The position numbers and the translations under genes are program-made. 64,000 bases of DNA from Candidatus Micrarchaeota archaeon (GTDB taxonomy: Archaea; Micrarchaeota; Micrarchaeia; Micrarchaeales; CABMGC01): contig JAJZNA010000032.1 of the NCBI GenBank assembly GCA_021848065.1, forward strand, positions 35,389-99,388. The letters run 5' to 3'. Of this stretch, positions 33,214 to 48,461 are shown piece by piece. The notes beneath the pieces are model-generated. The model had not been told where the DNA came from and ran no database searches. It was given only the letters and a program-made list of their open reading frames with translations. Positions within the stretch are counted from its first letter, which is position 1. Every line of letters begins with the position of its first letter.

Positions 33214-33352
33214 ATTAACGACCTCATTTTTAAGCAGTTTCTTTGTACACCTATAATAACACTCCGCTTTGATTGGCTTTGTTTATACTATCTACCCATA
33301 AATGCTTTCCATAAAACGCGTATTTTTATTGCTTGATTGGCCAACTTAATCC

Positions 33353-35839: not shown

Positions 35840-36007
35840 TTTTCATACCCAGGAATAGTAAGCTGGAAAAGTATTTATCGGTTGCAGTTTGAAGACATTA
35901 CACTATAATTTTGGTTTTGCAACTGCTTTGTAAAGGTTTATAATAACAGATAATGGATCATATATGTGTTAGGGTCTAAATAAAGTAAAATTATACCGTT
36001 GGGTCGT

Positions 36008-37078
36008 ATGATGTCAGATCAAGACGAACATATAAAAATACTTAAACAAAGATATGCTAAGGGAGAAATAACCAAAAAACAGTACATGGAAATAAAGGAA
36101 GATCTTAAAGAAGAGAAAGAAAGTATTCCATATTCAAAAAGATATAACTCTGGAGGACATGGGCTCAGAAATCTAATCGTATTAATCATAATACTTGGCA
36201 TCATTTTCTTTCTTTATCAGATTGCTCAAGCCGAAGCTTTTAGAAATGTACAAATTACTTTATCAGGCGCATCTATGGGTAATGTCGGTTTAACTAGTGC
36301 AGATTTGAATCTAGATCTGAATTTTTATAATCCCCTATCCATTCCAGCAACTCTATCCAGTATTTCCTATTCCGTGTATGCAAATAATAACTATCTTGGC
36401 AGCGGAAGTATAAATGGACCAATAAGTATAGCCCCACATAATACTGCTACAGAGCCAACTACCGTGACTATCTCCTATCTTGGTGCAGTTCAGAGTGTGT
36501 GGGCTACGTTAACTAGCGGGCAAGTTCAGTTAACTGTAAGTGGCGACGCTGTGATAAACACAATTTTAGGGCCCATAACTATCCCTTTTAATCAATCCAT
36601 TTATTCTTCTAATTCCAGTTTATCTGTAAGCTCTACTAGTTATCCTACAACTCAATCAACACAGTATACTAGCTATTACACGACAAGCATACCAACCACA
36701 ACTGCATATTATGGTTCGCAATGTTTACCCCAATCTGGTTATACTTGCTCCAATCCTTTTCTATCAAGTTATAGCGGAGAGCTAAATGTAACGCTTGGTG
36801 AAAATACTGGAAATAACTGGTATGATGTTGGTTTAGTCTGGGTTCCTTCAGGTACAGATCTTTCCAACGTGCAGAACCTATTCAACTCTCCGACTGCCAG
36901 ATTTTATAATTATATGTATAGTGGTTCCACATATTATTTCTTATTACCTGTTACTGGTCAGGGTGCCGGCCCTGGAACCATTTATAATGGAACAATATGG
37001 GCTCAGTACAGTGTTTCTCCTGGGGGAGGTACTTATTACACCGAAATTGCATCTGCATACCTAACAGCAACTCCTTAA
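36008..37078 (+). CDS. SHOCT-like N-terminal motif + TM + LEA_2/WHy-like domain protein with Ser/Thr/Tyr-rich C-terminus
   Basis: LKQRYAKGEITKKQYMEIKEDL (SHOCT-like), TM helix LIVLIIILGIIFFLY, then LDLNFYNPLSIPATLSSISYSVYANNNYLGSG (LEA_2-like pattern). Confidence 0.45.
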   Translation: MMSDQDEHIKILKQRYAKGEITKKQYMEIKEDLKEEKESIPYSKRYNSGGHGLRNLIVLIIILGIIFFLYQIAQAEAFRNVQITLSGASMGNVGLTSADLNLDLNFYNPLSIPATLSSISYSVYANNNYLGSGSINGPISIAPHNTATEPTTVTISYLGAVQSVWATLTSGQVQLTVSGDAVINTILGPITIPFNQSIYSSNSSLSVSSTSYPTTQSTQYTSYYTTSIPTTTAYYGSQCLPQSGYTCSNPFLSSYSGELNVTLGENTGNNWYDVGLVWVPSGTDLSNVQNLFNSPTARFYNYMYSGSTYYFLLPVTGQGAGPGTIYNGTIWAQYSVSPGGGTYYTEIASAYLTATP

Positions 37079-37160
37079 GAATTTGTGGTAGGCACCTTTC
37101 CCCCAGTAGTTTATTGGTTTGTATTTTATTCAACTTACAAATATTCCATTATAAATTTAC

Positions 37161-37232
37161 GCAAGTTTGCGGCTTTGTTTATAATTACTGTTGATAAAAC
37201 TATTTATAAACATACAAGGCAATTTATAAACA
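37161..37232. repeat. left repeat cluster: GCAAGTTTGCGGCTTTGTTTATAA plus two TTTATAAACA decamers 20 nt apart
   Basis: Decamers at 37203-37212 and 37223-37232, with an inverted copy inside 37176-37184. Confidence 0.6.
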
Positions 37233-37241
37233 GGTGTAAAT

Positions 37242-37466
37242 ATGGTTCTTGAGCAGAATAGAGACGGGCAAATTTGCCCTAATTGCAAGAAAGGCAAACT
37301 ACATCAAATTTCATTCAGGGAACACGTGAAAGACATTGGAGACGCAGGTATCGTAGAAGGAGAATCTGATAGACATTACCGATGTGATTACTGTAAAGAA
37401 GAAATAAATGATGCTGGTATCGGTAGGGGTTTTGGTGTCGGTGCATCTACAAAGCCTAAGAAATAA
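37242..37466 (+). CDS. zinc-ribbon protein, 74 aa
   Basis: CPNC ... CDYC pairs. A TATA (TTTATAAACA) lies about 20 nt upstream of the ATG. The 3' end overlaps the transposase stop by 11 nt. Confidence 0.5.
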   Translation: MVLEQNRDGQICPNCKKGKLHQISFREHVKDIGDAGIVEGESDRHYRCDYCKEEINDAGIGRGFGVGASTKPKK

Positions 37467-37935
37467 ATTCTGTTTTTACCCCTAACTCGTTCACCGCAGA
37501 GTTAAGCACAACTATATTGTGGCAGAGTATCTTTAGGAGCAATTCGTTTATCTGTGCTGTCCTTGTCTTGCTCTTTAGCATATCGTTGAACTTAGCCTTT
37601 ACCATGAAGAAGGTTGTCTCTACGTTAGACCTCTTGTGGTAATGCTCCATAAACTCCTCTCGGCACATCTGAAAGTAGTAGAACATCTTGTTCCATACCC
37701 TACCACCCCTGCTATGCTGTGAGCTATTTGCCTTGAACGGCACATAGGCTATTGCTCCCATCTCCGCAACTGCGTCAAGATTGTCTCTTGATAGGTATGC
37801 CTTGTCTCCGCTTACCTCTCTTATAGTAAATCCTGCGTCCTTAGTAGCCTTGACAAGAGGTATGAACTGCGGACTATCACCACCCATATTGACCTCAACT
37901 GCGGTAATCACATTAGTCTTGACGCCAGTTATCAC
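37456..37935 (-). CDS. transposase C-terminal DDE fragment
   Basis: Contains TGVKTNVITAVEV..., SGDKAYLS and YHKRSNVETTFFMVKAKF. Its frame continues upstream as EYCREKHNTKQQHEWLKVHV until a TGA. Confidence 0.6.
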   Translation of the reverse strand: MITGVKTNVITAVEVNMGGDSPQFIPLVKATKDAGFTIREVSGDKAYLSRDNLDAVAEMGAIAYVPFKANSSQHSRGGRVWNKMFYYFQMCREEFMEHYHKRSNVETTFFMVKAKFNDMLKSKTRTAQINELLLKILCHNIVVLNSAVNELGVKTEFIS

Positions 37936-37943
37936 ATGAACCT

Positions 37944-38636
37944 TTAGCCATTCGTGCTGTTGCTTTGTATTGTGCTTCTCTCTGCAATACTCTCATCTAC
38001 CGCAAAATCAATCTCTACGCTCCGCGGGGCAAGAGAGGACTGGGTAACAAGTTCGCTAAGAATAGGCGTTATATCCTCTCGTTCCATGAACTTGCCAACA
38101 AGCGAGTAGCAAGGCACGTTATTGACATATCCCTTGTCCTTCGCAACTCTAAGGTCGGTCATAAATCGCCTTAGACTGAACTGGCTAAAGACCTTGAGAG
38201 TAGAAGCAAATAAGAGGTCTCTTACTGGCATCTGCGGTCTGCCCCTGCCTTCTCTGTGGTTCTCTGGGACGTTCTCAATAAGTCCCTGCAATAGCTCCAT
38301 GAAGCGTTCCTTCTCTGTTATCTGGCTAAGGTTGTATGCGCTCCAATTCTGGGGTATCTGTATCTTCTTGACCTGCGTTATAGTAGTAGAGCCGTCAGGG
38401 TTTCTTTGTTTAGTTATCATGAACTCTACGCTGAATATGTGCTTGCACTTCATACCACGTTCTACATAATCAGGGCAGGTGCATCCTGAGTTGCCTATAC
38501 CTAAGACCACTTCATAGGTCTTACTGCAACTCTGCGAAGGCACTATCCACGTATTGCCGTGAAGCCTTACGTTCCCCTTCTCTACTATCGCCTTATCCTT
38601 TTGCTTTCGGACTTGTAGTTGTTCTCGTGTCTGCAT
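37944..38636 (-). CDS. transposase N-terminal fragment with SWIM zinc finger
   Basis: CTCPDYVERGMKCKHIF fits CxCx(n)CxH. The ORF ends ...DFAVDESIAERSTIQSNSTNG*. Confidence 0.6.
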   Translation of the reverse strand: MQTREQLQVRKQKDKAIVEKGNVRLHGNTWIVPSQSCSKTYEVVLGIGNSGCTCPDYVERGMKCKHIFSVEFMITKQRNPDGSTTITQVKKIQIPQNWSAYNLSQITEKERFMELLQGLIENVPENHREGRGRPQMPVRDLLFASTLKVFSQFSLRRFMTDLRVAKDKGYVNNVPCYSLVGKFMEREDITPILSELVTQSSLAPRSVEIDFAVDESIAERSTIQSNSTNG

Positions 38637-38737
38637 CCAATCACTTACTTATTGATATATTACTATTAAGTATATACCAATATAAATACCTTGTGGTATA
38701 ATACCACTATTTATATACTTTATTGTTGATATACTAC

Positions 38738-38929
38738 TATGGCGATTGTACTATTAAAAGGTTTCAAATGCGAAAGATGTGGGCATGAGTGGATTCCGAG
38801 AGACCCAGAGGTTCCACGTGTTTGCCCTCGGTGCAAAAGCCCATATTGGAACGTACCTCGAAAGCAGAAAGGAAAGGAAGGGCAGGCAAAAGGCGCAAAG
38901 AAACAGTAGTCTTTATATACTTTAACTGA
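38738..38929 (+). CDS. small zinc-ribbon protein (about 63 aa)
   Basis: Hand translation gives MAIVLLKGFKCERCGHEWIPRDPEVPRVCPRCKSPYWNVPRKQKGKEGAGKRRKETVVFIYFN. It is not in the supplied ORF track, so the coordinates should be rechecked. Confidence 0.45.
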
Positions 38930-38967
38930 GCCTACTCATAGACTGAGGCTAAAGACTCAGCCAATAG

Positions 38968-39501
38968 ATGAGGCTTATGCCTGAACTCAATACAGATGTT
39001 TTGAACAAACTTTCATTGGAGGAGATAAAACTCTTACCGACGGAAGAACGGAGCAGATACTATGAGCGATACATATTCGAGTTAGTGAAGACTCATGAGC
39101 GGGTCGGCATGACACAGAAGGAAATCGAGGGCTTGACAGGTATTGCAGGGAATACTGTGTCAAAGTATCTCGAAGTACTCTTCTCGAAGAGAAACGTTTA
39201 CAGGGTTAAGCGCGGGAACAATGTCACGTACTTCCCAAATGGGAAGATGCTCCATCCATTAGTGGATAGGGACGTGGTAGTTTATGATAGGGAGGGTGAG
39301 GAGCACAGGTATAGAGCATATGCAGTAGACAACCCTGATGGGAAGTTCCTATATCTGCAAGAAAAGGAGATAGACCGAAGGTCTGGAATGGAAAATATAG
39401 TCGGAGGAATCCTTATCCCGCAGGAGGGAATAGCAAAGTTCAAGGCGTTGTTCGTAGAATTTGACAGCGCATTCAAGGAATTAATATTGGAAGAGGATTG
39501 A
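38968..39501 (+). CDS. winged-helix DNA-binding protein
   Basis: VGMTQKEIEGLTGIAGNTVSKYLEVLFSKRNVYRVKRGNNVTYF has an HTH plus wing pattern. Confidence 0.5.
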   Translation: MRLMPELNTDVLNKLSLEEIKLLPTEERSRYYERYIFELVKTHERVGMTQKEIEGLTGIAGNTVSKYLEVLFSKRNVYRVKRGNNVTYFPNGKMLHPLVDRDVVVYDREGEEHRYRAYAVDNPDGKFLYLQEKEIDRRSGMENIVGGILIPQEGIAKFKALFVEFDSAFKELILEED

Positions 39502-39505
39502 AAAA

Positions 39506-40819
39506 ATGTTATCGACAATAGTGTATAAGGTAGTTGGCAGAGATGCGCAGACAAATGCGAAGGTAGTGGAGTTACAGAATCCAGTCACAGGTAAGAGTGC
39601 TGTGCTCACAGGTGCGTTCTTCGACTTGAGAAGTAACGAGGACTTCAAATTTATGCGCCAAATGTTCACGCAGACCGGTTACAAGATAGAGAACATAAGG
39701 GGAGTGCAGATACCTTTCCATTATCTGCCAAAGTACGCATCAAGAATGCTCGGCGTGTTGCCAAGCAACTGCTTTATGCTCAGCGACCTATGTACAGAAG
39801 TCATATACTTTGGCGGCGTGTCCGACGCAAAGAAGGACTTCTACTATACTGCTAACCTGTTCCCCGATGTGGTCAAGGAGAAGATGAGGAAGATTCAGGA
39901 GGCCGACAATTATGTGAAGAAGGGCGTATTGCATAAGCAAACATGGCAAGATATAACCTCCGATAAGAAGCTCCTTATAAAACTTATTACTAACTTCGTA
40001 CGCGAGCAGATGCACTTCAGGAACGATTTCATATCAGTACCATCTCCGCTGATTCTGGATACTGCTCACCTTGACTTCGTTGAGGCGTGTTATCAGATGG
40101 CACTAAACACATACAGCAGTCCTATGCTCGACATAGAGAAGGAGCAGGGAAGGATACTGGCGCTGTATCTAAACATACATAAGAACTTCCTGTTGAAGGA
40201 GAGCAATGTACGCGAACTCCTTGCCACGGTCAAGCGATTGGCGCCCAAGGCTATAATCTATAAGATATCTGGCCTTGATGACATAAGAAGCTCGCCAAAA
40301 CTTGTTGATGGTTGGGTAGCCCTAACGGGTGGACTTGGACTTATATCGAATGAGGACGCAGTACCAACGATATACATGGATACCTCTGTTGAGGGTCTAA
40401 TCGCTATGGGTTATGGCGTAGATAGCATAACGCAGACCTTCTATAAAATAGATAATATTGAGAAGAAATTTACGCTCTCGCGCGATGTTATGAGAAAGCT
40501 TTGGCGGGACAGTCACGGGACGCTGAGTGCTGGAAGAATATCTCTATATGATGATAAGGAGGCCATAAGCCGTCTGGACTTCGAGACGTTGTTACAACAC
40601 TCTCCGCCCCCTATACCAATGCCAGAGATAGAACCTTTGACGTATGACTATGTTCATGCAATGAGCAATTCATCGTTCAGAGACCTTGCTAAGCGCGTCC
40701 TTCTCTTCGAGAGGGAGATGGAGATAAGGGAACTAAAGGAAGCCATAATGAAGGGTGAGATAAGGCTTATGAAGGGGAAGTTCAAGAGATGGATGAAGAC
40801 AATAGATTTATTCCCTTAG
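39506..40819 (+). CDS. orphan 437-aa protein, function unknown
   Basis: Long clean ORF starting 4 nt after the wHTH gene. I recognise no motif. Confidence 0.55.
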   Translation: MLSTIVYKVVGRDAQTNAKVVELQNPVTGKSAVLTGAFFDLRSNEDFKFMRQMFTQTGYKIENIRGVQIPFHYLPKYASRMLGVLPSNCFMLSDLCTEVIYFGGVSDAKKDFYYTANLFPDVVKEKMRKIQEADNYVKKGVLHKQTWQDITSDKKLLIKLITNFVREQMHFRNDFISVPSPLILDTAHLDFVEACYQMALNTYSSPMLDIEKEQGRILALYLNIHKNFLLKESNVRELLATVKRLAPKAIIYKISGLDDIRSSPKLVDGWVALTGGLGLISNEDAVPTIYMDTSVEGLIAMGYGVDSITQTFYKIDNIEKKFTLSRDVMRKLWRDSHGTLSAGRISLYDDKEAISRLDFETLLQHSPPPIPMPEIEPLTYDYVHAMSNSSFRDLAKRVLLFEREMEIRELKEAIMKGEIRLMKGKFKRWMKTIDLFP

Positions 40820-40830
40820 ATGGCTATAAT

Positions 40831-40913
40831 GGCGTAAGACACCGAATCGGAAAACGGGCAGCTTTGCAAGCTGCTGCCTTAGTAGCTTAATGGGTTCGAC
40901 TCCTATTTACGAT
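40831..40913 (+). other. tRNA-like fragment (anticodon-arm-like and T-arm-like hairpins), not a canonical tRNA
   Basis: Stem GCAGC/GCTGC with 7-nt loop TTTGCAA (UGC in the anticodon position), and ATGGG-TTCGACT-CCTAT as a T-arm-like hairpin. A 17-nt spacer and a poor D arm and acceptor stem prevent a normal cloverleaf. Confidence 0.3.
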
Positions 40914-40934
40914 TATATCTATTAAAGTGATTTT

Positions 40935-41105
40935 ATGCCCTCAGATGATGACATTGTAAAAGCAGGTCTTGTAATAGGGGCCATAATATTGGGCGCAGGT
41001 ATTATTGATGCTCTTTCTAAGAAAACCTGTCCTGTATGCAAGAATAGGATTGATAATAATGCAAAGGTGTGCCCACATTGTGGCACGAGGTTTGACGGCA
41101 TATGA
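40935..41105 (+). CDS. small TM + zinc-ribbon protein, 56 aa
   Basis: Hand translation gives MPSDDDIVKAGLVIGAIILGAGIIDALSKKTCPVCKNRIDNNAKVCPHCGTRFDGI. Its stop overlaps the next start (ATATGA). Confidence 0.45.
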   Translation: MPSDDDIVKAGLVIGAIILGAGIIDALSKKTCPVCKNRIDNNAKVCPHCGTRFDGI

Positions 41106-41344
41106 GCAAATCAAAAACCCTCGTCAAGAGGTTGCCTTATTCGTCTAATAATGCCAGAATACTTGCATTTCTATCTTACTTTGCAGCTTTTATGGTAGTA
41201 GCTATATTTGCAGACTTTCTACTTACTCAGAGCTTCTACTCCTTTGCCTTAGTTGTTATAGTAATAGCAATAATTCTATTCAACTTATATGATGGCATGA
41301 AGAAGTTATCATTCGGGAAGAATGGCGTGGACATAGAAAAGTAG
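41102..41344 (+). CDS. small membrane protein, 80 aa
   Basis: Two hydrophobic helices. Translationally coupled to the preceding mini-ORF. Confidence 0.45.
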   Translation: MSKSKTLVKRLPYSSNNARILAFLSYFAAFMVVAIFADFLLTQSFYSFALVVIVIAIILFNLYDGMKKLSFGKNGVDIEK

Positions 41345-41348
41345 TCAT

Positions 41349-41410
41349 TTTATAAACAGAATCCTGAATTTATAAACAAAAGGCATTTTGTAAACAAAGC
41401 CCAAGTTTGC
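41349..41410. repeat. right repeat cluster: two TTTATAAACA decamers 20 nt apart, a TTTGTAAACA variant, then AAAGCCCAAGTTTGC (inverted partner of the left cluster)
   Basis: Decamers at 41349-41358 and 41369-41378, variant at 41387-41396. The reverse complement of 41388-41410 aligns with 37161-37184 at about 20 of 23-24 positions, counted by eye. Confidence 0.6.
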
Positions 41411-41528
41411 CAATTCGATTCAAATCCTTACCAGAGCATAATGTGTGAGGGTTATATCCAACTCGTCCGAATGTCTCACTCTCTAACATGGTTTTAGCAT
41501 GGAGAGAGACTAGAAATTTGGTGGTAGA

Positions 41529-42053
41529 TTAGGATTTGGTGATTGTGATAGGTATACTACCACAAATTTTATTGCTTATCCCTATAATTTTAATGCAAAC
41601 ATTCATAGATGTATTCATATTGGTAGTAGTTCTATTGACACTAAATCCACTACACTGAAATGAAGTTATATTTTTTGAAAATAGGGGGCTTGTTTGTGCA
41701 TGAAAATTAGGACTAACTTCAACATTATAAATGGGGCTTGTTACTATCTGTGTCGAATTTGTTCTTTGAATCGGAGTTGGATAAATTAGATTAGTGCTAA
41801 ATTCACATGTGCTTTGGGAGAAATTTATTGAATATTCTTGATTAGATGGATTCATTACATAAAATGGAAACGCTAAATTTGATGAATTGCTAGGGGTTTG
41901 AAGTCCTTGAGTAATAATATAAGGTAATGACGCTTCAAATAACTGACTTTGTAGGGCGTAATTTTGCCAAGCATAATAAGCTGCAACTATTACCGCTAAA
42001 ATTGCTATACTAGTGGTTATAACCCATTTTTTATCCTTATACCATTTATCCAT
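41529..42053 (-). CDS. membrane-anchored protein of unknown function (last gene of the island operon)
   Basis: N-terminal TM helix WVITTSIAILAVIVAAYYAW, then an Asn/Ser/Thr-rich presumably extracellular region. Starts 8 nt after the RM gene stop. Confidence 0.5.
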   Translation of the reverse strand: MDKWYKDKKWVITTSIAILAVIVAAYYAWQNYALQSQLFEASLPYIITQGLQTPSNSSNLAFPFYVMNPSNQEYSINFSQSTCEFSTNLIYPTPIQRTNSTQIVTSPIYNVEVSPNFHAQTSPLFSKNITSFQCSGFSVNRTTTNMNTSMNVCIKIIGISNKICGSIPITITKS

Positions 42054-42061
42054 AATGTCAT

Positions 42062-44917
42062 CTACCTTAGGCTCTCTTCAATTACCTTCTTTTCCTCTTC
42101 TGATATTCCATAGAGTTTATAGATTAGATTATCAATCTGTGAATCTGCTATTTTTATTTTTTCCTCAATCCTTTCCTTTCCACTTGTCTGTTTCCCGTCC
42201 ATCTGTAATACTTCCTTATTCCAATCTAGGATCTTTTCGACCAATTGGGCTATTTCGCCAGCCATTGCCTTTTCTATTCTATTCTGAGGAACGATAATGG
42301 GAAGTTCTTCTAGCGTTTTAACATAAATTCTTAGGTAATCTTGCTGAATTGAAATTGTTGAATTAGAAAGCAAAAACCAAGTCAGTTTACTATTTAATAG
42401 CCCAATCAAATATTTATCATCGCTAACAATAAAATTTGCTGGTGCATTAAGAAAGAATTTATTTGGATCAAATGTAAATGTTGGTTTAATCATAATACCT
42501 TGGAGAACAATCTTAGGTTTATCAAATTCTTTATAATAATCAGTTACATCTTGAATTTCAAACCATTTATATGAACCAGGTTTGCGCCCTACTTTTTCAT
42601 CTCCAGATTTAGGCGTTAATTTTTCTTTAAATTGTGAAAGATGATCTTTTATAGATGGCAAAGTATCAATATTTATTCCTCTATTAGTAAAAATGAGGAA
42701 TAGTTCTGGGTCTTTAATATAATAGCGACCTATATCGCTACCCCTAAGGAAAGGTTTGATAATTTCTGAAGACTTTTTATCTCTAGCAATAATATGATCC
42801 CTTGTAGTGGAATTTATAACGAATGCTTCATTTAGGCCAGTTGTTATGCCACGATAAATTTTTCCGTCTACATATTGCCTTAGCGGAATGCCTTTAGCTC
42901 TGAGTTTTTGGAACAAGGTGTGTGCGTCCTTATGTTGAATATTCCATTCATTTTCTCCTAGCTCTTTTTGATTTAGGAAAAAGGAATTTTTATCTATATC
43001 TACATAACCCTTAAGGTCACCAAATTTTAACGTTTCCACCATACATATTCTAATTTTTGGGTTTGGTTTTGCAATTTTTCTTATTATTATAATTGATGGG
43101 TATGTAGTAGCATCTTTAAATACTTTCAAATCCCCAAAATCGATAAATTCTTCTATCCAGAATTTATTAATGAATTGCCTTAGATTTTTTCCATAGCCTG
43201 CCCTAAGCCATTTGTTTGATACAATCATTCCAAAATACCCGCCATCTTTAAGCATTTTTAATTCTCGTTCAAAGAAATAAACAAAAAGATCTGCAGTTCC
43301 TTGAAAAACTTCGTAATTTGCTTCCAAATATGGTTTAATATTAGTAAGTTCTTCCTGCCTGACATAAGGTGGATTTCCAAGAATTACATCGAATCCTCCT
43401 TCCCGCATTATCCCTTCAAATTCTTCGCTCCACGTGAAAGCCTTGCTACCTGCCACGTTGGGATCATCTATCAGAGAATTCCCATTTTTAATGTTCTGTT
43501 GCAATATTGGCAACCTTCTCTTCTTCTCAGCGACCTTGAGCAATAAGTTCAACTGTGCTATATCCACCGCTTGCCTGTCTAAATCAACACCAAAGATGTT
43601 ATCATTGAGTATGCTAAGTTTAGTTGAGTATGTAGTTCCAGTACCGCTCATGTCGAGTTTGTTCTGGTTATAGCCCTCTTTTTTGCTGTAATACTCATTC
43701 AGTACATCGAAAGTCTTTATCAGGAACGAGCCAGAACCGCAGGCAGGATCTAGAACCTTGATTTTTGAAACATCAACCCTCTTGTTCTTTATCAACTCTC
43801 CAACAGTATTCCTTACAATGTAATCCACGATATAGCTGGGCGTATAGTATATGCCCTCTTCTTTCCTCTTTGCCTTGCTTTCTGTTAGTTTCGTTCTCTT
43901 CTCGGTCTTCTTTAGAATGTGCCCTAGATACTGTTCATAGATGTTGCCTAGAACATCGGCGTCTATCAATGAGAAGTCGTATTGTATCGAGCCATCTTCT
44001 GTGGCGTATAACCCATCCAATATGCGACTTAGAACGTTATCGCTTATATCTACCTGATCGCATAAGTGCTTGCTGAATATCTTGCTGTTATAGGTCTCGT
44101 CAAAGTGGGTAAAAAGGTCTCTGAGTTTGCTTACAAGCATGCCTTTTTTATTCTCTTTCCACTGCCTCAGGGTAGACAATAGGTCATAAGGTTCAAGTTC
44201 TCTATCCTCACAGTTCCTAATAAAGATAAGGCGGTCAAAGAGCCGTTGTATTGCCTCGTCTAATTCCTCCTCGGTTAAGTTTTTGCTCTTGTTCAGACTG
44301 TAAACATCTTTTGAGAGAATCGCCCTGAAGTTTGTAAAGTCCAAAAGTAACTGTTCTGTTATCGGTCTCTTTCTTGACTTTGTGCTATACTTTTCATTCA
44401 ATTTTCCTTGTATGAAGGCTTCTTTTGATAGCAGATAAACGCTTTCAAAATCACTCAGTAGACTATCTATCCATATTGCAAACCTAAAACTACTTTGAGA
44501 ACTCGCCTTTGCCCATGCATCGTAAACGATTATGCCCTTGAAGTTGGTTAGAATTGCCCAGTTGCATCCTTTGTAATAGGCGTAATTGATCGCCTGCTCT
44601 GCATAGGTAACTTGCCTGCCCTTTACCATCCGAGAACCTTCTAAATCCTCGGCCAGCCCTTTTGCCTCAAGAAAGAACTTTGGTATGCCATCTATCCTGA
44701 ACCCATAATCAACTCGCTTGCCAGAGATGTTCTCCTCTTTTGATACTTCATCCGAATCTTCTGTGTTCCATCCGAGTATCCTGAATAAAGGTAGTATAAA
44801 GTCGTTTTTTGTAGCCTCTTCATTGTACCTTTTGCCCTTCTCACGATTATACTTCTCGATGAGTTTTGTTATCTCAGTTTTCATTTGTTCCTTATCCATA
44901 AAAACACTAACGCTCAA
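42062..44917 (-). CDS. Type IIG restriction-modification enzyme (PD-(D/E)xK nuclease + gamma-class N6-adenine methyltransferase + target-recognition region)
   Basis: N-terminal HsdR_N-like VDYGFRIDGIPKFFLEAKGL, motif I VLDPACGSGSFL and motif IV ILGNPPYV, followed by about 400 aa of C-terminal region. 951 aa in total. Confidence 0.8.
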   Translation of the reverse strand: MSVSVFMDKEQMKTEITKLIEKYNREKGKRYNEEATKNDFILPLFRILGWNTEDSDEVSKEENISGKRVDYGFRIDGIPKFFLEAKGLAEDLEGSRMVKGRQVTYAEQAINYAYYKGCNWAILTNFKGIIVYDAWAKASSQSSFRFAIWIDSLLSDFESVYLLSKEAFIQGKLNEKYSTKSRKRPITEQLLLDFTNFRAILSKDVYSLNKSKNLTEEELDEAIQRLFDRLIFIRNCEDRELEPYDLLSTLRQWKENKKGMLVSKLRDLFTHFDETYNSKIFSKHLCDQVDISDNVLSRILDGLYATEDGSIQYDFSLIDADVLGNIYEQYLGHILKKTEKRTKLTESKAKRKEEGIYYTPSYIVDYIVRNTVGELIKNKRVDVSKIKVLDPACGSGSFLIKTFDVLNEYYSKKEGYNQNKLDMSGTGTTYSTKLSILNDNIFGVDLDRQAVDIAQLNLLLKVAEKKRRLPILQQNIKNGNSLIDDPNVAGSKAFTWSEEFEGIMREGGFDVILGNPPYVRQEELTNIKPYLEANYEVFQGTADLFVYFFERELKMLKDGGYFGMIVSNKWLRAGYGKNLRQFINKFWIEEFIDFGDLKVFKDATTYPSIIIIRKIAKPNPKIRICMVETLKFGDLKGYVDIDKNSFFLNQKELGENEWNIQHKDAHTLFQKLRAKGIPLRQYVDGKIYRGITTGLNEAFVINSTTRDHIIARDKKSSEIIKPFLRGSDIGRYYIKDPELFLIFTNRGINIDTLPSIKDHLSQFKEKLTPKSGDEKVGRKPGSYKWFEIQDVTDYYKEFDKPKIVLQGIMIKPTFTFDPNKFFLNAPANFIVSDDKYLIGLLNSKLTWFLLSNSTISIQQDYLRIYVKTLEELPIIVPQNRIEKAMAGEIAQLVEKILDWNKEVLQMDGKQTSGKERIEEKIKIADSQIDNLIYKLYGISEEEKKVIEESLR

Positions 44918-44926
44918 TTTATCTCT

Positions 44927-45571
44927 TCATATATCATGTTTTTCATTCCAGCACCAGTAATCGTATAGGATGGGAACTATACTCGCTTTTTTACATAACT
45001 CAAATACTGCATTCTGAATTATCCGATACAGATCAGGACTGTTTATATAACTCATTGTGGGATTAGTTGGAATATTTATCCTATATTTTACTTCTGTAAG
45101 CTTATTGATTACATTTTTTATTGGTTTTAATGAGAATTCATCAAATGGGACATTAAGAAATGGTACAACATTTTCGTTGCTTAGAAACGTAGATTCATTC
45201 AGCGTCTTTATTAGTACATTAACTATTTTACTTGCCTGTCCAAAAATTATTCGTTTATTCGAATCATTTATTTGTGAATTCCAATAATCGATGAAGTCAT
45301 CGATCCATTCAAAAAGATGTGCATCGAAATCTTCTTTAGCGGTTATGCTGTTCAACACTGCAATTATTTCATCTATATTCTTGTTAGCCCATTCTCGATA
45401 GATTGATGACGGTGGTCTATTTAGTTTATGGAATCCTCTAACAATGTTTGACTGAATTGAACTTTTAATTATCGCCTCTTTCGCAAGGTCCTTTTTATCT
45501 ATTGTTTTTTTATAGTTTTTTAATATGCCAACTGCGTCTTCGACGTTTTCAAATATATGGATGTCTTGCAT
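44927..45571 (-). CDS. orphan 214-aa protein directly upstream of the RM gene
   Basis: Clean AT-rich ORF whose start codon abuts the stop of the 73-aa ORF. No motif recognised. Confidence 0.5.
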   Translation of the reverse strand: MQDIHIFENVEDAVGILKNYKKTIDKKDLAKEAIIKSSIQSNIVRGFHKLNRPPSSIYREWANKNIDEIIAVLNSITAKEDFDAHLFEWIDDFIDYWNSQINDSNKRIIFGQASKIVNVLIKTLNESTFLSNENVVPFLNVPFDEFSLKPIKNVINKLTEVKYRINIPTNPTMSYINSPDLYRIIQNAVFELCKKASIVPILYDYWCWNEKHDI

Positions 45572-45793
45572 TTACTTACCTAGTTTGTTCATAATCTTGC
45601 CATAAACCTTGATTCTCTTGCCTTCTCTTATGTGTTTCTGCATATACCACAGAGTTGACTTATTTATGCCTAACCTCTTGCGGTCTTGCGGTGTTAGGGT
45701 TAGCACTCTGTTGCGAATTGTATTATCCTTTAGTCTTATCCTGACTTCTGTCCTATATTCGACTTCATGTAAGGATACTCTTAAATCATCCAT
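45572..45793 (-). CDS. small 73-aa protein with HTH-like segment
   Basis: Sequence MDDLRVSLHEVEYRTEV...LTPQDRKRLGINKSTLWYMQKHIREGK. The ATG at 45793 overlaps the helicase stop (ATGGATGA). The ORF-track start at 45838 lies inside the helicase gene. Confidence 0.45.
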   Translation of the reverse strand: MDDLRVSLHEVEYRTEVRIRLKDNTIRNRVLTLTPQDRKRLGINKSTLWYMQKHIREGKRIKVYGKIMNKLGK

Positions 45794-48461
45794 CCCACCC
45801 AACCTCCTGCTTGACCAGCACGCACAGAATGCTCTCATCTCCTTTCTTTTTCAGCTCTTTTATGAATTGCTGCGGGTCCTTCCTGTACTCCAGGAACTTC
45901 CCGATGTGCCTAAGCACAGTATCATACTGCCCTTTATCCGGCTGCTTAACTTCAAGCCTGCAGCCCATCTTCCCGGTGTTTATGTTGCCTCTCAGGGCTA
46001 TGAAGCCTATCGCGGTCCTTATGCTGCCCTCATCTACCTTGTTTGCAATGGAATAAAGCTTCCTGTAAGCTGCCAGCTGCCTCCTGTGCTCAGAGGCCTT
46101 CCCATCGGTCCTGTCGGTCTTCCAGTCAACTATCAGATATCCCTCCCTGGTCTTGTAGACTGCATCGAGCTTGGCCTTGAACTCCATGCCTTCAGGGGCT
46201 CCGGGCACAAGGTCGCAAAGTGGAAGGACTATGGAGTCCTCCGCGCCTATCTGCCTAGCCTCACTAGAAGACCTTATCTCCAGGTCCAGCCTCCTTATGT
46301 TCTCAAGGTACGGCTTCTCATCAGAAGGTATGGTGGACTCGTCAAGGGTCTTGTTGAACATGCCCTCAGCCATGGAGTGCGCCTTGTTGCCCATGTTCAA
46401 AGCGCTGCTCTCCTCGCGCATGCACAGTATGTTCCTCTTGAGGAACTCGAAAGGGTCGCATAGGCCCTCTATTAGGGTATAGGAAAGCCTGTCGGCATGC
46501 TTGAAATAGTCGTATATGCGCTCGCGCAGCCACGGGTCCCTGGAGCCTATGAGTTTGCGTGCCTCATCGTACCTTCCGTTGACGAACATGCTGTAGGCCT
46601 GGTCGAACTTCCTTGAGATTGGCTCCGGCTCGTCCTCCATGGTCTCGTAGCTCTCAACTCCGTACTCCCCGGCTGCATACTCCTGGGCAGACTTGCTGTC
46701 CGCTATTATAGTGAGGCGATCCCTGGCCCTTGTGAACGCTACGAAGTCTACGCGCAGCTGCTCCTCGCCGAGCTCCTCCCTTATGTCTATCCCCTTCATG
46801 CCCTTTATCAGCCCGTAGACAACTGCGTCAACGAAGCTGAAGCTGTCCTTAGCCTTCCTTGGAACGTATATCACGTTGTCGAACTCGAGGCCCTTGGACT
46901 TGTGCACTGTGGTGAGGACGAGGTCCTCGTCCCTTCCGATGGGCTCGTAGCTCTCCTCGGTCACCTGCAGGTAGTTGAATAGGTCGGAGATCTGCGGGGC
47001 TTCAACAACATCGAAGAACTCGGATATGTTGTCCCTTATGGCCGAGGCCGTTATGTAGTAGTCCTTGCCTATGGATACGCTTATCGGTATTATCACTTCG
47101 TTGAAGATGCTTGCCAGCCCGGCCCTTGAGAAGGCAAGGGTGCGAAGCACCATGAACCTGGGGACTAGCCTGTGCAGCGTGGCGTCATCAAGCTTCCTAT
47201 CGCCATGAAGCTTAGAGACCTCGAAGGCCTCCTTGAGGCTCACCCCGGCGAAGGGGGTGAAGAGGGCATTGACTATGAGGCCATGGTCATCGTAGAGGAT
47301 GCCCTTAAGGAAGGCGATTATTGTGTTCTTGGCCTCTTGCGAAGTCGCATTGCTTATGGTCGTTGAGTATTTTACGTTCTTGGAGTCGAGCATGCGCGAT
47401 ATCCCAAGTATCTGGCCATTGGACCTTGTTATTATCGCAGTCCTGCCCTTTCCGCTTAGCGAGATTGCCTTCTTCACGGCAAGGCTGGGCTGCTGGTCCC
47501 TGTTCACCCCTATTATCTCAACATGGCCCTGCGCATCCCTGTCCGCAGAGAAACTGGCAAGGTCCTGCGCATGGTCCAGGTGCCCGGTCCTTGACTTGAA
47601 TGCCTCAGCGGCGTACTTTATTATCTGCCTAGAGCTCCTGTAGTTCTTGCCAAGCACCTCCCTTTCCATGTTTGGCAGCTTCTCCATCTTCGCGAAGTTC
47701 CTGATCGAGCCTCCCTGGAACCCGAATATCGACTGCTTCCTGTCTCCTACAAGGAAGAGCTCCTCCCCGCTCTCTAGCGCTATGTCCGCCTCTATCTCAT
47801 TGACGTCCTGGAGCTCGTCCACAAGCACGAACCTGAACCTCTTCCTATCCCTAAGCCTCATGAACCTGAGCAGCATGTCATTGTAGTCTATGTATCCCGG
47901 CTTCTTGGATTTTTCATAATCCTGGAAGGCATCAACGAAATAGTCCGCAAATTTAAGCTGCTCATCCTGCGATATGTTAGTTATCCCGTTCTCAATGTAT
48001 GCCTGCTCTATGTAAGGCCTGCACCTGGCAAGGTCTATCGCCTCGGGGGTTATGCCGTAGCTCTTTAGGTAGCGTATGGCGTTCTCCACCTTTGGCACTA
48101 TGTCCCCTATTATGTAAGCCAGAGAGTAGTTGAGCGCCTTGTTGGCCTCGAAGCTCTTGAATATCGAGTACCTTATCGCGTTGTTGCCAAGCACCTGGTG
48201 GCTTCCCTCGCTCTCCTCCAAAAAGGCGAGCGCGTAGCTGTGGAATGTGTGTATGCTTAGGTCATGCAGCTTTGCATCAAGCCCTTCCTTCTTGGCAAGC
48301 TCGCGTATCCTCTGCCTCATCTCGTTGGCTGCCTTCTCCGTGAAGGTTATGCAGAGTATGTCCTTTGGCTGTGCCCCTTCCTTAAGCAGCTCTATGACGC
48401 GCCTGGCAAGTGTGGTAGTCTTCCCTGTCCCGGGGTTTGCGAGTATAAGCCTGTTTGCCAT
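45786..48461 (-). CDS. UvrD/PcrA-family SF1 helicase fused to a RecB-type PD-(D/E)xK nuclease domain
   Basis: Helicase motifs ANPGTGKTTT, TFTEKAANEM, VDELQDVN, VGDRKQSIFGFQGG, KNYRSS, TVHKSKGLEFDNV and AFTRARDRL. Nuclease motifs KLDAVY...YLIVDWKTD...RRQLAAYRKLY. Confidence 0.85.
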   Translation of the reverse strand: MANRLILANPGTGKTTTLARRVIELLKEGAQPKDILCITFTEKAANEMRQRIRELAKKEGLDAKLHDLSIHTFHSYALAFLEESEGSHQVLGNNAIRYSIFKSFEANKALNYSLAYIIGDIVPKVENAIRYLKSYGITPEAIDLARCRPYIEQAYIENGITNISQDEQLKFADYFVDAFQDYEKSKKPGYIDYNDMLLRFMRLRDRKRFRFVLVDELQDVNEIEADIALESGEELFLVGDRKQSIFGFQGGSIRNFAKMEKLPNMEREVLGKNYRSSRQIIKYAAEAFKSRTGHLDHAQDLASFSADRDAQGHVEIIGVNRDQQPSLAVKKAISLSGKGRTAIITRSNGQILGISRMLDSKNVKYSTTISNATSQEAKNTIIAFLKGILYDDHGLIVNALFTPFAGVSLKEAFEVSKLHGDRKLDDATLHRLVPRFMVLRTLAFSRAGLASIFNEVIIPISVSIGKDYYITASAIRDNISEFFDVVEAPQISDLFNYLQVTEESYEPIGRDEDLVLTTVHKSKGLEFDNVIYVPRKAKDSFSFVDAVVYGLIKGMKGIDIREELGEEQLRVDFVAFTRARDRLTIIADSKSAQEYAAGEYGVESYETMEDEPEPISRKFDQAYSMFVNGRYDEARKLIGSRDPWLRERIYDYFKHADRLSYTLIEGLCDPFEFLKRNILCMREESSALNMGNKAHSMAEGMFNKTLDESTIPSDEKPYLENIRRLDLEIRSSSEARQIGAEDSIVLPLCDLVPGAPEGMEFKAKLDAVYKTREGYLIVDWKTDRTDGKASEHRRQLAAYRKLYSIANKVDEGSIRTAIGFIALRGNINTGKMGCRLEVKQPDKGQYDTVLRHIGKFLEYRKDPQQFIKELKKKGDESILCVLVKQEVGWDG

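Follow-up and report, generated by a model that had tools for sequence, protein, structure and literature searches.

The 64,000-nt stretch of Candidatus Micrarchaeota archaeon DNA analysed here (contig JAJZNA010000032.1 of assembly GCA_021848065.1, positions 35,389 to 99,388; hereafter the window) comes from a genome of 1.2 Mb in 35 contigs, with 49% G+C and 93% completeness. Where a LEA_2/SHOCT membrane-protein gene and a 174-aa gene converge with their 3' ends, the window carries a compact cassette at positions 37171-41401, in which we found, as the first-pass annotation had listed, genes for three zinc-ribbon mini-proteins, a winged-helix-turn-helix (wHTH) protein, a 437-aa orphan and a small membrane protein together with a frameshifted transposase gene (Table 1). 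Exact copies of a decamer, TTTATAAACA, lie close to both ends. We hold with high confidence that this 4,231-bp unit is a cargo-carrying DDE transposon of the IS5 family, IS903 type, in which the decamers would serve as transposase-docking sites.

The termini of the element consist of a 14-nt terminal inverted repeat (TIR), GGCTTTGTTTATAA at the left or "A" end and GGCTTTGTTTACAA read inward from the tip of the right or "B" end, outside which the same 9-mer, CAAGTTTGC, is perfectly repeated on both sides as a target-site duplication (TSD). The inner 10 nt of the left TIR are themselves the terminal copy of the motif that is repeated further inside. The sequences quoted in the first-pass annotation were all present where it had placed them; its imperfect inverted repeat of 23-24 nt was a real match, but one that resolves into the 14-nt TIR (13 of 14 positions) and a 9-bp direct repeat, the 9-mer having been taken for part of the inverted match because it is nearly palindromic. 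A TIR flanked by a 9-bp direct repeat is the hallmark of a DDE transposon insertion. That the cassette forms a discrete mobile unit, as had been proposed, holds; TIRs and TSD enclose the whole of it, and we counted in the same direction the finding of the 437-aa gene in 0 of 60 related genomes and the position of the element in foreign, low-G+C DNA.

Both the GGC with which the two TIRs begin and the 9-bp TSD are those of the IS903 group. The enterobacterial elements IS903 and IS903B (about 1.06 kb) resemble the window element in having a homologous DDE_Tnp_1 transposase, ends starting GGCTTTGTT and a 9-bp TSD; for IS903B an inverted repeat GGCTTTGTTGAATAAATC and a 9-bp direct repeat are on record (PMC10569121), and an IS903-type copy that we re-found on a Klebsiella plasmid (1,055 bp) had the same inverted repeat and a perfect 9-bp TSD. 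The closest agreement in the ends was seen in a sibling element at locus L058 (6754-10779), whose TIR, GGCTTTGTTGAATA, equals the first 14 nt of the IS903B repeat despite the distant relationship between the two transposases.

The transposase gene of the window element is a pseudogene in two pieces that are out of frame with each other; their junction near 37940-37990 contains stops and lacks a few codons. The pieces are 61% and 43% identical to an intact 406-aa copy on another contig of the same genome (C22), and the C-terminal piece accounts for the match to PF01609 (E 6.6e-12) that places the enzyme among the homologues of the IS903-group DDE transposases. The intact sibling copy aligned with bacterial and plasmid IS5-family transposases at 22-25% identity (E 3e-8 to 3e-11), including the Klebsiella IS903-type copy (22% identity over 89% of the length, E 3e-8). 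We considered that the gene might belong to an independent insertion sequence (IS) nested in a larger element and rejected this, as no inner TIR pair with a duplication was found around the transposase gene alone in the window element; the transposase is therefore the cassette's own mobility gene. The earlier description of the transposase as broken was borne out. With its gene frameshifted, this copy can no longer move unless it is served in trans by a related enzyme.

Relatives of this transposase were present in 53 of 201 genomes sampled from the order. For 20 transposase loci we fetched 8 kb on either side and ran a script that required GG-initial repeats agreeing at 11 or more of 14 positions, enclosing the transposase and flanked by a 9-bp duplication with at least 8 of 9 positions identical. 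Complete elements were delimited in 9 of these 20 loci, the script also recovered the window element and those at C22 and L005, and a distant homologue of the 437-aa gene led to a thirteenth element, L072, which encloses it. The 12 complete relatives all have GGCT(T/G)TG TIRs, the 13 elements span 2.6-9.3 kb (2,571 bp for the smallest complete sibling), and the TSD is perfect in 12 and agrees at 8 of 9 positions in the remaining one. Every complete copy found carries passenger genes, and those of the siblings are mostly defence genes, namely Eco57I-like type IIG enzymes, type I methylase and specificity subunits, an AIPR protein, a Dam-type methylase with an HNH protein, and an N4/N6 methylase with a type II endonuclease. 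The C22 element combines an intact transposase with a divergent small zinc-ribbon gene like that in the window and a type II methylase and restriction-enzyme pair as cargo.

The four exact decamers with their 20-nt spacing were confirmed at 37203, 37223, 41349 and 41369, all on the + strand and with no other copy in the window; the number expected by chance is about 0.15, and none of 100 shuffled sequences reached four. The degenerate third copies noted earlier were confirmed too: TTTGTAAACA occupies 41387-41396, and TTATAAACAA is read from the minus strand of 37175-37184. The entire 1.2-Mb genome holds 10 copies, the six outside the element being singletons, so that pairs spaced 20 nt apart are unique to the element ends. 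Ten genomic copies are too few for a generic promoter word in common use, and the positions of the decamer are conserved in the relatives.

In all 13 elements a 10-12-nt motif is present about three times at each end, at distances from the tip that hardly vary. The B end has direct copies at about 6, 24 and 44. At the A end the terminal copy, at 6, is often accompanied by a direct copy at 18-19, and two further copies, at about 34 and 54, are inverted; the two subterminal copies of an end are 18-20 nt, or about two helical turns, apart. The motif itself varies from element to element (TGTTTATAAA in the window; TGCATTTAAA, TGCTAATAAAGT, TGCACCTAAAGT, TGTGTATAAAGT and TGTTGAATAAAT in siblings), and in each it follows that element's own terminal repeat. 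Over 26 ends and their subterminal 95 nt, the motif of an element's own TIR occurred 2.5 times per end beyond the terminal copy, as against 0.20 times for the motifs of other elements, and 66 motif matches were observed compared with about 5 in shuffled subterminal DNA. As the window decamers stand at positions 33 and 53 of the left end and 24 and 44 of the right end, they are, judging from sequence, subterminal sites of this transposon family and most likely transposase-binding sites, the transposase being the most likely binder because it is the only protein present in every element. Of the earlier suggestions for the decamers, that of binding sites rather than independent generic promoters stands, while that of plasmid or virus iterons does not.

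Movement within the family was recent, as an insertion polymorphism directly attests. At locus L085 a B-type end (GAGCTTTGTTTAAAAAGT, with copies at 6, 24 and 44) splits an L005-type transposase gene (L085 4700-4790 versus L005 8840-8900) that is uninterrupted in three other records, and the DNA past the junction is 100% identical in L085 and L005 over 2.5 kb.

The same site layout bears on a second candidate for the binder, a small element-encoded protein, either the divergent 56-aa zinc ribbon or the wHTH protein, that would regulate or assist transposition from these sites. Genes of DNA-binding type do often stand divergent from the transposase gene: the same CxxC...CPxCKSPYWN zinc ribbon occupies the same place in 4 of the 12 first-found elements, AbrB-like small open reading frames (ORFs) do so in 2, and the 177-aa wHTH protein had been put forward as the binder in the first-pass annotation. 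Neither protein is universal, however; the site layout is found in 13 of 13 elements and the wHTH gene in 3, leaving 10 complete elements that have the repeats without it, so that the wHTH protein is unlikely to be the decamer binder and a small-protein binder in general appears improbable.

Several points weigh against the transposon and docking-site interpretation. The transposase is only about 22-25% identical to the bacterial IS903-group enzymes, and against the NCBIfam IS5 model NF033579 the intact L005 transposase scored 132.9 bits, below the cut-off of 140 bits (71.3 bits for the window fragment), a near miss that would be consistent with a divergent branch. Bacterial IS903 has neither extra sites nor cargo, no empty site with joined flanks was found for the window insertion in 100 genomes of the family, and the transposase is a putative binder of the motif, proposed from sequence. 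Moreover, the core of the motif, TTTATAAA, is also the archaeal TATA-box consensus, and in 8 of the 12 first-found elements an inward ORF starts just inside the A end, 60-140 nt from it. These last two observations would be expected if the decamers were mainly archaeal promoters, the left ones driving the first passenger gene and the right ones directed outward, with their likeness to the TIR incidental; about 35 nt separate the decamer at 37203 from the downstream ATG at 37242, and the six singleton genomic copies are in seemingly intergenic, promoter-like places. Yet the sibling motifs are often not TATA-like (TGCACCTAAAGT, TGCTCCTAAAGT) while their positions are kept and the element's own TIR is always copied, the three B-end copies lie behind the last gene and point outward, and in four elements a gene ends rather than starts at the A end. 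The motif may have a promoter role, alone or in addition to docking, but promoters as the main explanation of the decamers we regard as unlikely, if somewhat less so than a small-protein binder.

The first-pass annotation had viewed the cassette as a small integrated plasmid or virus-like element. On such a view the decamers would be iterons or attachment sites, and the transposase would have come in later as an insertion unrelated to the rest. In its favour, archaeal plasmids and viruses commonly have small zinc-ribbon and wHTH genes, and the window element has both; in addition, the sequence directly beyond its right end (41411-41438) looks like a decayed tRNA 3' end, and the element itself contains a tRNA-like remnant. 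The annotation's statement that no integrase is visible agrees with our searches, in which neither Pfam nor PHROGs nor NCBIfam gave the window element a match to an integrase, replication or capsid family, and in place of an integrase with att direct repeats, usually at a tRNA gene, as in an integrative plasmid or provirus of the tyrosine-recombinase type, there is a direct repeat of only 9 bp that lies outside the inverted repeats. IS903-type ends and a TSD enclose the whole unit, the transposase has no separate ends, the same ends enclose entirely different cargo in the siblings, and 12 further elements have the same layout. The plasmid or virus interpretation is already contradicted by these data and, of the alternatives weighed here, we give it the least credence; the cassette is instead a DDE transposon.

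For this transposon we propose the following sequence of events. A transposase like that encoded at 37456-38636 would bind the ends and, by homology with IS903, cut out or nick the element at its GGC tips; the element would then be joined to a target cut with a 9-bp stagger, repair of which would leave the CAAGTTTGC duplication. Several transposase-docking sites per end, the TTTATAAACA decamers among them, might assemble an asymmetric transposition complex, with the B-end sites all direct and the A-end subterminal sites inverted relative to the tip. The frameshifted window copy could be moved only by a related enzyme in trans; C22 has an intact but divergent copy. The remainder of the element would be passenger DNA, the core of which is a two-gene unit of a wHTH protein and a protein of the tRNA-guanine transglycosylase (TGT) superfamily. 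The ends, the TSD, the homology of the transposase and the conserved site layout with its covariation are observed, while the binder of the sites, this chemistry and the function of the cargo are what we infer.

Compared with IS903, the window element is four times longer, has seven passenger ORFs and resides in an archaeal host, and the transposase of its family has some 100 additional residues and a SWIM-like zinc finger at its N-terminus. It is not a simple IS of about 1 kb with a transposase only and one repeat per end, since it has 4,231 bp, seven other ORFs and about three motif copies per end. These copies are arranged in a non-mirror layout, as opposed to the single 18-bp repeat of IS903B, whose printed 50-nt ends are without an obvious further motif copy (PMC10569121). 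Like transporter ISs and unit transposons, the family has a single transposase and one TIR pair with a TSD around genes not needed for transposition. Restriction-modification (RM) genes are known as mobile cargo in bacteria, but in a survey of transposon-like RM units no archaeal case passed the filters (Furuta et al. 2010, PMC2853133); unlike those units, the archaeal cargo carriers share one coherent transposase family with conserved multi-site ends.

In multi-site, unlike ends the family also resembles phage Mu and Tn7, which have several phased binding-site copies per end and left and right ends that differ; it departs from both in its IS5-type DDE_Tnp_1 transposase, its much smaller size and the lack of an accessory ATPase or target selector. 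In the open-access text that was searchable we found no paper describing archaeal cargo-carrying IS903-type transposons. Within the IS903 group the window element joins, as a new and well-resolved member, a divergent archaeal branch that carries cargo and has multi-site ends. What had been a cassette with iterons becomes a defined mobile element of a widespread branch, notable for its mostly defence-related cargo, for three phased element-specific sites per end and for a tendency to insert near TATA-like A/T runs. The family is a plausible main vehicle for RM and defence genes among very small (DPANN-type) archaeal genomes, and the covariation of TIRs and subterminal sites offers a ready-made set of site variants with which end recognition by an IS5-type transposase can be studied.

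Table 1. Features of the window element and its flanks, and its intact sibling in the same genome.
Feature	Position	Strand	Remarks
TATA-like A/T run ATTATAAATTTA, left flank	37148..37159	.	2 nt before target 9-mer
Left TSD copy CAAGTTTGC	37162..37170	.	9/9 identical to 41402-41410
Left TIR GGCTTTGTTTATAA, "A" end	37171..37184	+	13/14 complementary to 41388-41401
Extra direct motif copy TGTTGATAAA	37189..37198	+	element position 19; occupied also in L010, L045, L046, L049
Subterminal copy TTTATAAACA	37203..37212	+	element position 33 (siblings: 34), inverted versus terminal copy
Subterminal copy TTTATAAACA	37223..37232	+	element position 53 (siblings: 54), inverted versus terminal copy
74-aa zinc-ribbon protein, passenger	37242..37466	+	weak zinc-ribbon matches only
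Own transposase, IS5-family DDE_Tnp_1, SWIM-like N-terminus, pseudogene	37456..38636	-	PF01609 E 6.6e-12; weak SWIM match
56-aa zinc-ribbon protein, divergent from transposase	38739..38909	+	same protein in same place in 4/12 first-found elements
177-aa winged-helix protein with C-terminal beta domain, first gene of the pair	38968..39501	+	model pLDDT 72
437-aa TGT-superfamily protein (by modelled fold), passenger	39506..40819	+	model pLDDT 81, pTM 0.84
tRNA-like remnant: no D arm, anticodon loop UUUGCAA, long variable arm	40846..40914	+	
56-aa protein, one hydrophobic helix and zinc ribbon	40935..41105	+	Zn_ribbon_3, 26.7 bits
80-aa protein, two predicted membrane helices	41102..41344	+	weak 2TM match
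Subterminal copy TTTATAAACA	41349..41358	+	position 44 from right tip, same orientation as terminal copy
Subterminal copy TTTATAAACA	41369..41378	+	position 24 from right tip
Right TIR, "B" end	41388..41401	-	+ strand TTGTAAACAAAGCC; inward from tip GGCTTTGTTTACAA
Right TSD copy CAAGTTTGC	41402..41410	.	9/9 identical to left copy
Intact sibling, same genome	C22:34574-39302 = L010 1075-5803		4,729 bp; ends GGCTTTGCTCATAAA and GGCTTTGCTAATTTA, perfect TSD CTGCAACTC

The wHTH gene and the 437-aa gene form a pair that recurs within the family. Homologues of the 437-aa protein are rare (9 by a word-indexed search; 47 clusters among 1.84 billion representatives), and a profile of the family gave one distant Acidilobaceae match in genome contigs and none in metagenome contigs. 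A protein of about 170-180 aa is encoded directly upstream of the 437-aa homologue wherever upstream DNA was available. The pair is present in at least three complete family elements (window, L005 and L072); in L009 a family end follows directly after it, and in L085 another family member is inserted beside an identical copy. In the elements that carry it the pair fills the slot taken by RM, AIPR or HNH genes in the siblings.

Structural modelling assigns the 437-aa passenger to the TGT superfamily by fold: the top 50 Foldseek matches of the model in the PDB were all TGTs (E 1.5e-6, TM 0.55/0.64), and a 29-sequence profile of the family matched the archaeal enzyme ArcTGT (1iq8) with E 4.9e-8. 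The model of the wHTH protein gave generic winged-helix domains only, its beta domain remaining unmatched. With TGT, ArcTGT and DpdA the 437-aa protein shares, on these comparisons, a TGT-like barrel fold, the ArcTGT profile match and conserved motifs, an Asp (D94) in an "iDP" motif and GxDxF/Y. It is nevertheless not a standard TGT. Pfam gave no match for the window protein, to PF01702 or any other model, the best distant family member reaching 16.7 bits against a threshold of 26.3 bits; the position of the catalytic nucleophile Asp after GxDxF, mapped provisionally from a partial alignment, holds T, S, I, V or C and is acidic in no member; and the CxCxxC zinc site (CxCxxC...H) is kept in distant members and absent from the window's clade. 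Nor does the pair look like a DpdA system, in which the partner is the ParB-like DpdB: here the partner is a wHTH protein, and the 93%-complete host genome has no convincing QueC for preQ0 supply, only PP-loop N-terminal matches inside long proteins.

The slot shared with sibling RM genes suggests, by analogy and as a lead only, a function of the pair in nucleic-acid modification or defence. A more specific proposal, which we advance as speculative and would ourselves bet against, is that the wHTH and TGT-like proteins may constitute a new transposon-borne system of base exchange or base excision, on DNA or RNA, used for defence or for RM-like self-marking. If so, the pair would act in archaea without any canonical TGT. 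The pair is a tangible candidate for a novel activity in nucleic-acid modification or defence. A canonical TGT (PF01702) was absent from the host genome and 40 relatives in a search that was positive in 14 of 14 control genomes; no TGT-superfamily protein was detected here apart from the 437-aa one carried by the transposon.

The DNA similarity between the window element and L005 extends from the start of the transposase gene to the stop codon of the 437-aa gene (38646-40822). As it stops at 40822, the last 580 bp of the element, with the tRNA-like remnant and two small membrane or zinc-ribbon genes, are a different passenger block. The tRNA-like remnant scored 20.7 bits against the Rfam tRNA model (threshold 29 bits) and was not called by ARAGORN, and Rfam found nothing else between 36900 and 42100. 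For the passenger proteins of the window element, PHROGs, PADLOC and NCBIfam gave nothing useful, and a viral structure library gave no match at E <= 0.001. In two siblings ARAGORN called tRNA-like genes just upstream of the transposase genes (L046 9255-9332 and L058 7634-7720), of which one has an unreadable anticodon and one is an 87-nt "tRNA-Val".

The transposon lies inside a low-G+C stretch of about 10 kb (window 35850-45800; 32-45% versus about 50-52% around it), and this DNA around the element is foreign. The A/T run next to the target 9-mer in the left flank has counterparts in the family, in that an A/T run of 8 nt or more lies no farther than 18 nt from the target in 10 of 13 insertions, compared with a baseline in the same loci of 8% of all positions and 22% of non-coding ones (binomial p = 4e-5). 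We take this as partial support for TATA-adjacent targeting, partial because the elements are few and because insertions that survive tend to be those in intergenic DNA. A lone match to the TIR, GGCTTTGTTTATAC at 33275-33288, was examined as a further family end and set aside as probably due to chance, because it has no subterminal copies and no partner and an estimated 0.6 or so chance 11-mer matches are expected in the genome. In the same low-G+C stretch a type IIG RM gene (42062-44917) resembles the Eco57I-like cargo of the siblings; no family ends were found around it. Just beyond the tRNA-3'-end-like stretch right of the insertion lies a sequence of about 65 nt (41444-41519), for which RNAalifold on five copies gave a hairpin with no compensatory changes. 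This sequence recurs with 81-96% identity in at least 13 of 100 genomes of the family, and in the three relatives examined it follows an intact tRNA gene (Pro, Glu and Lys) at a distance of no more than about 100 nt.

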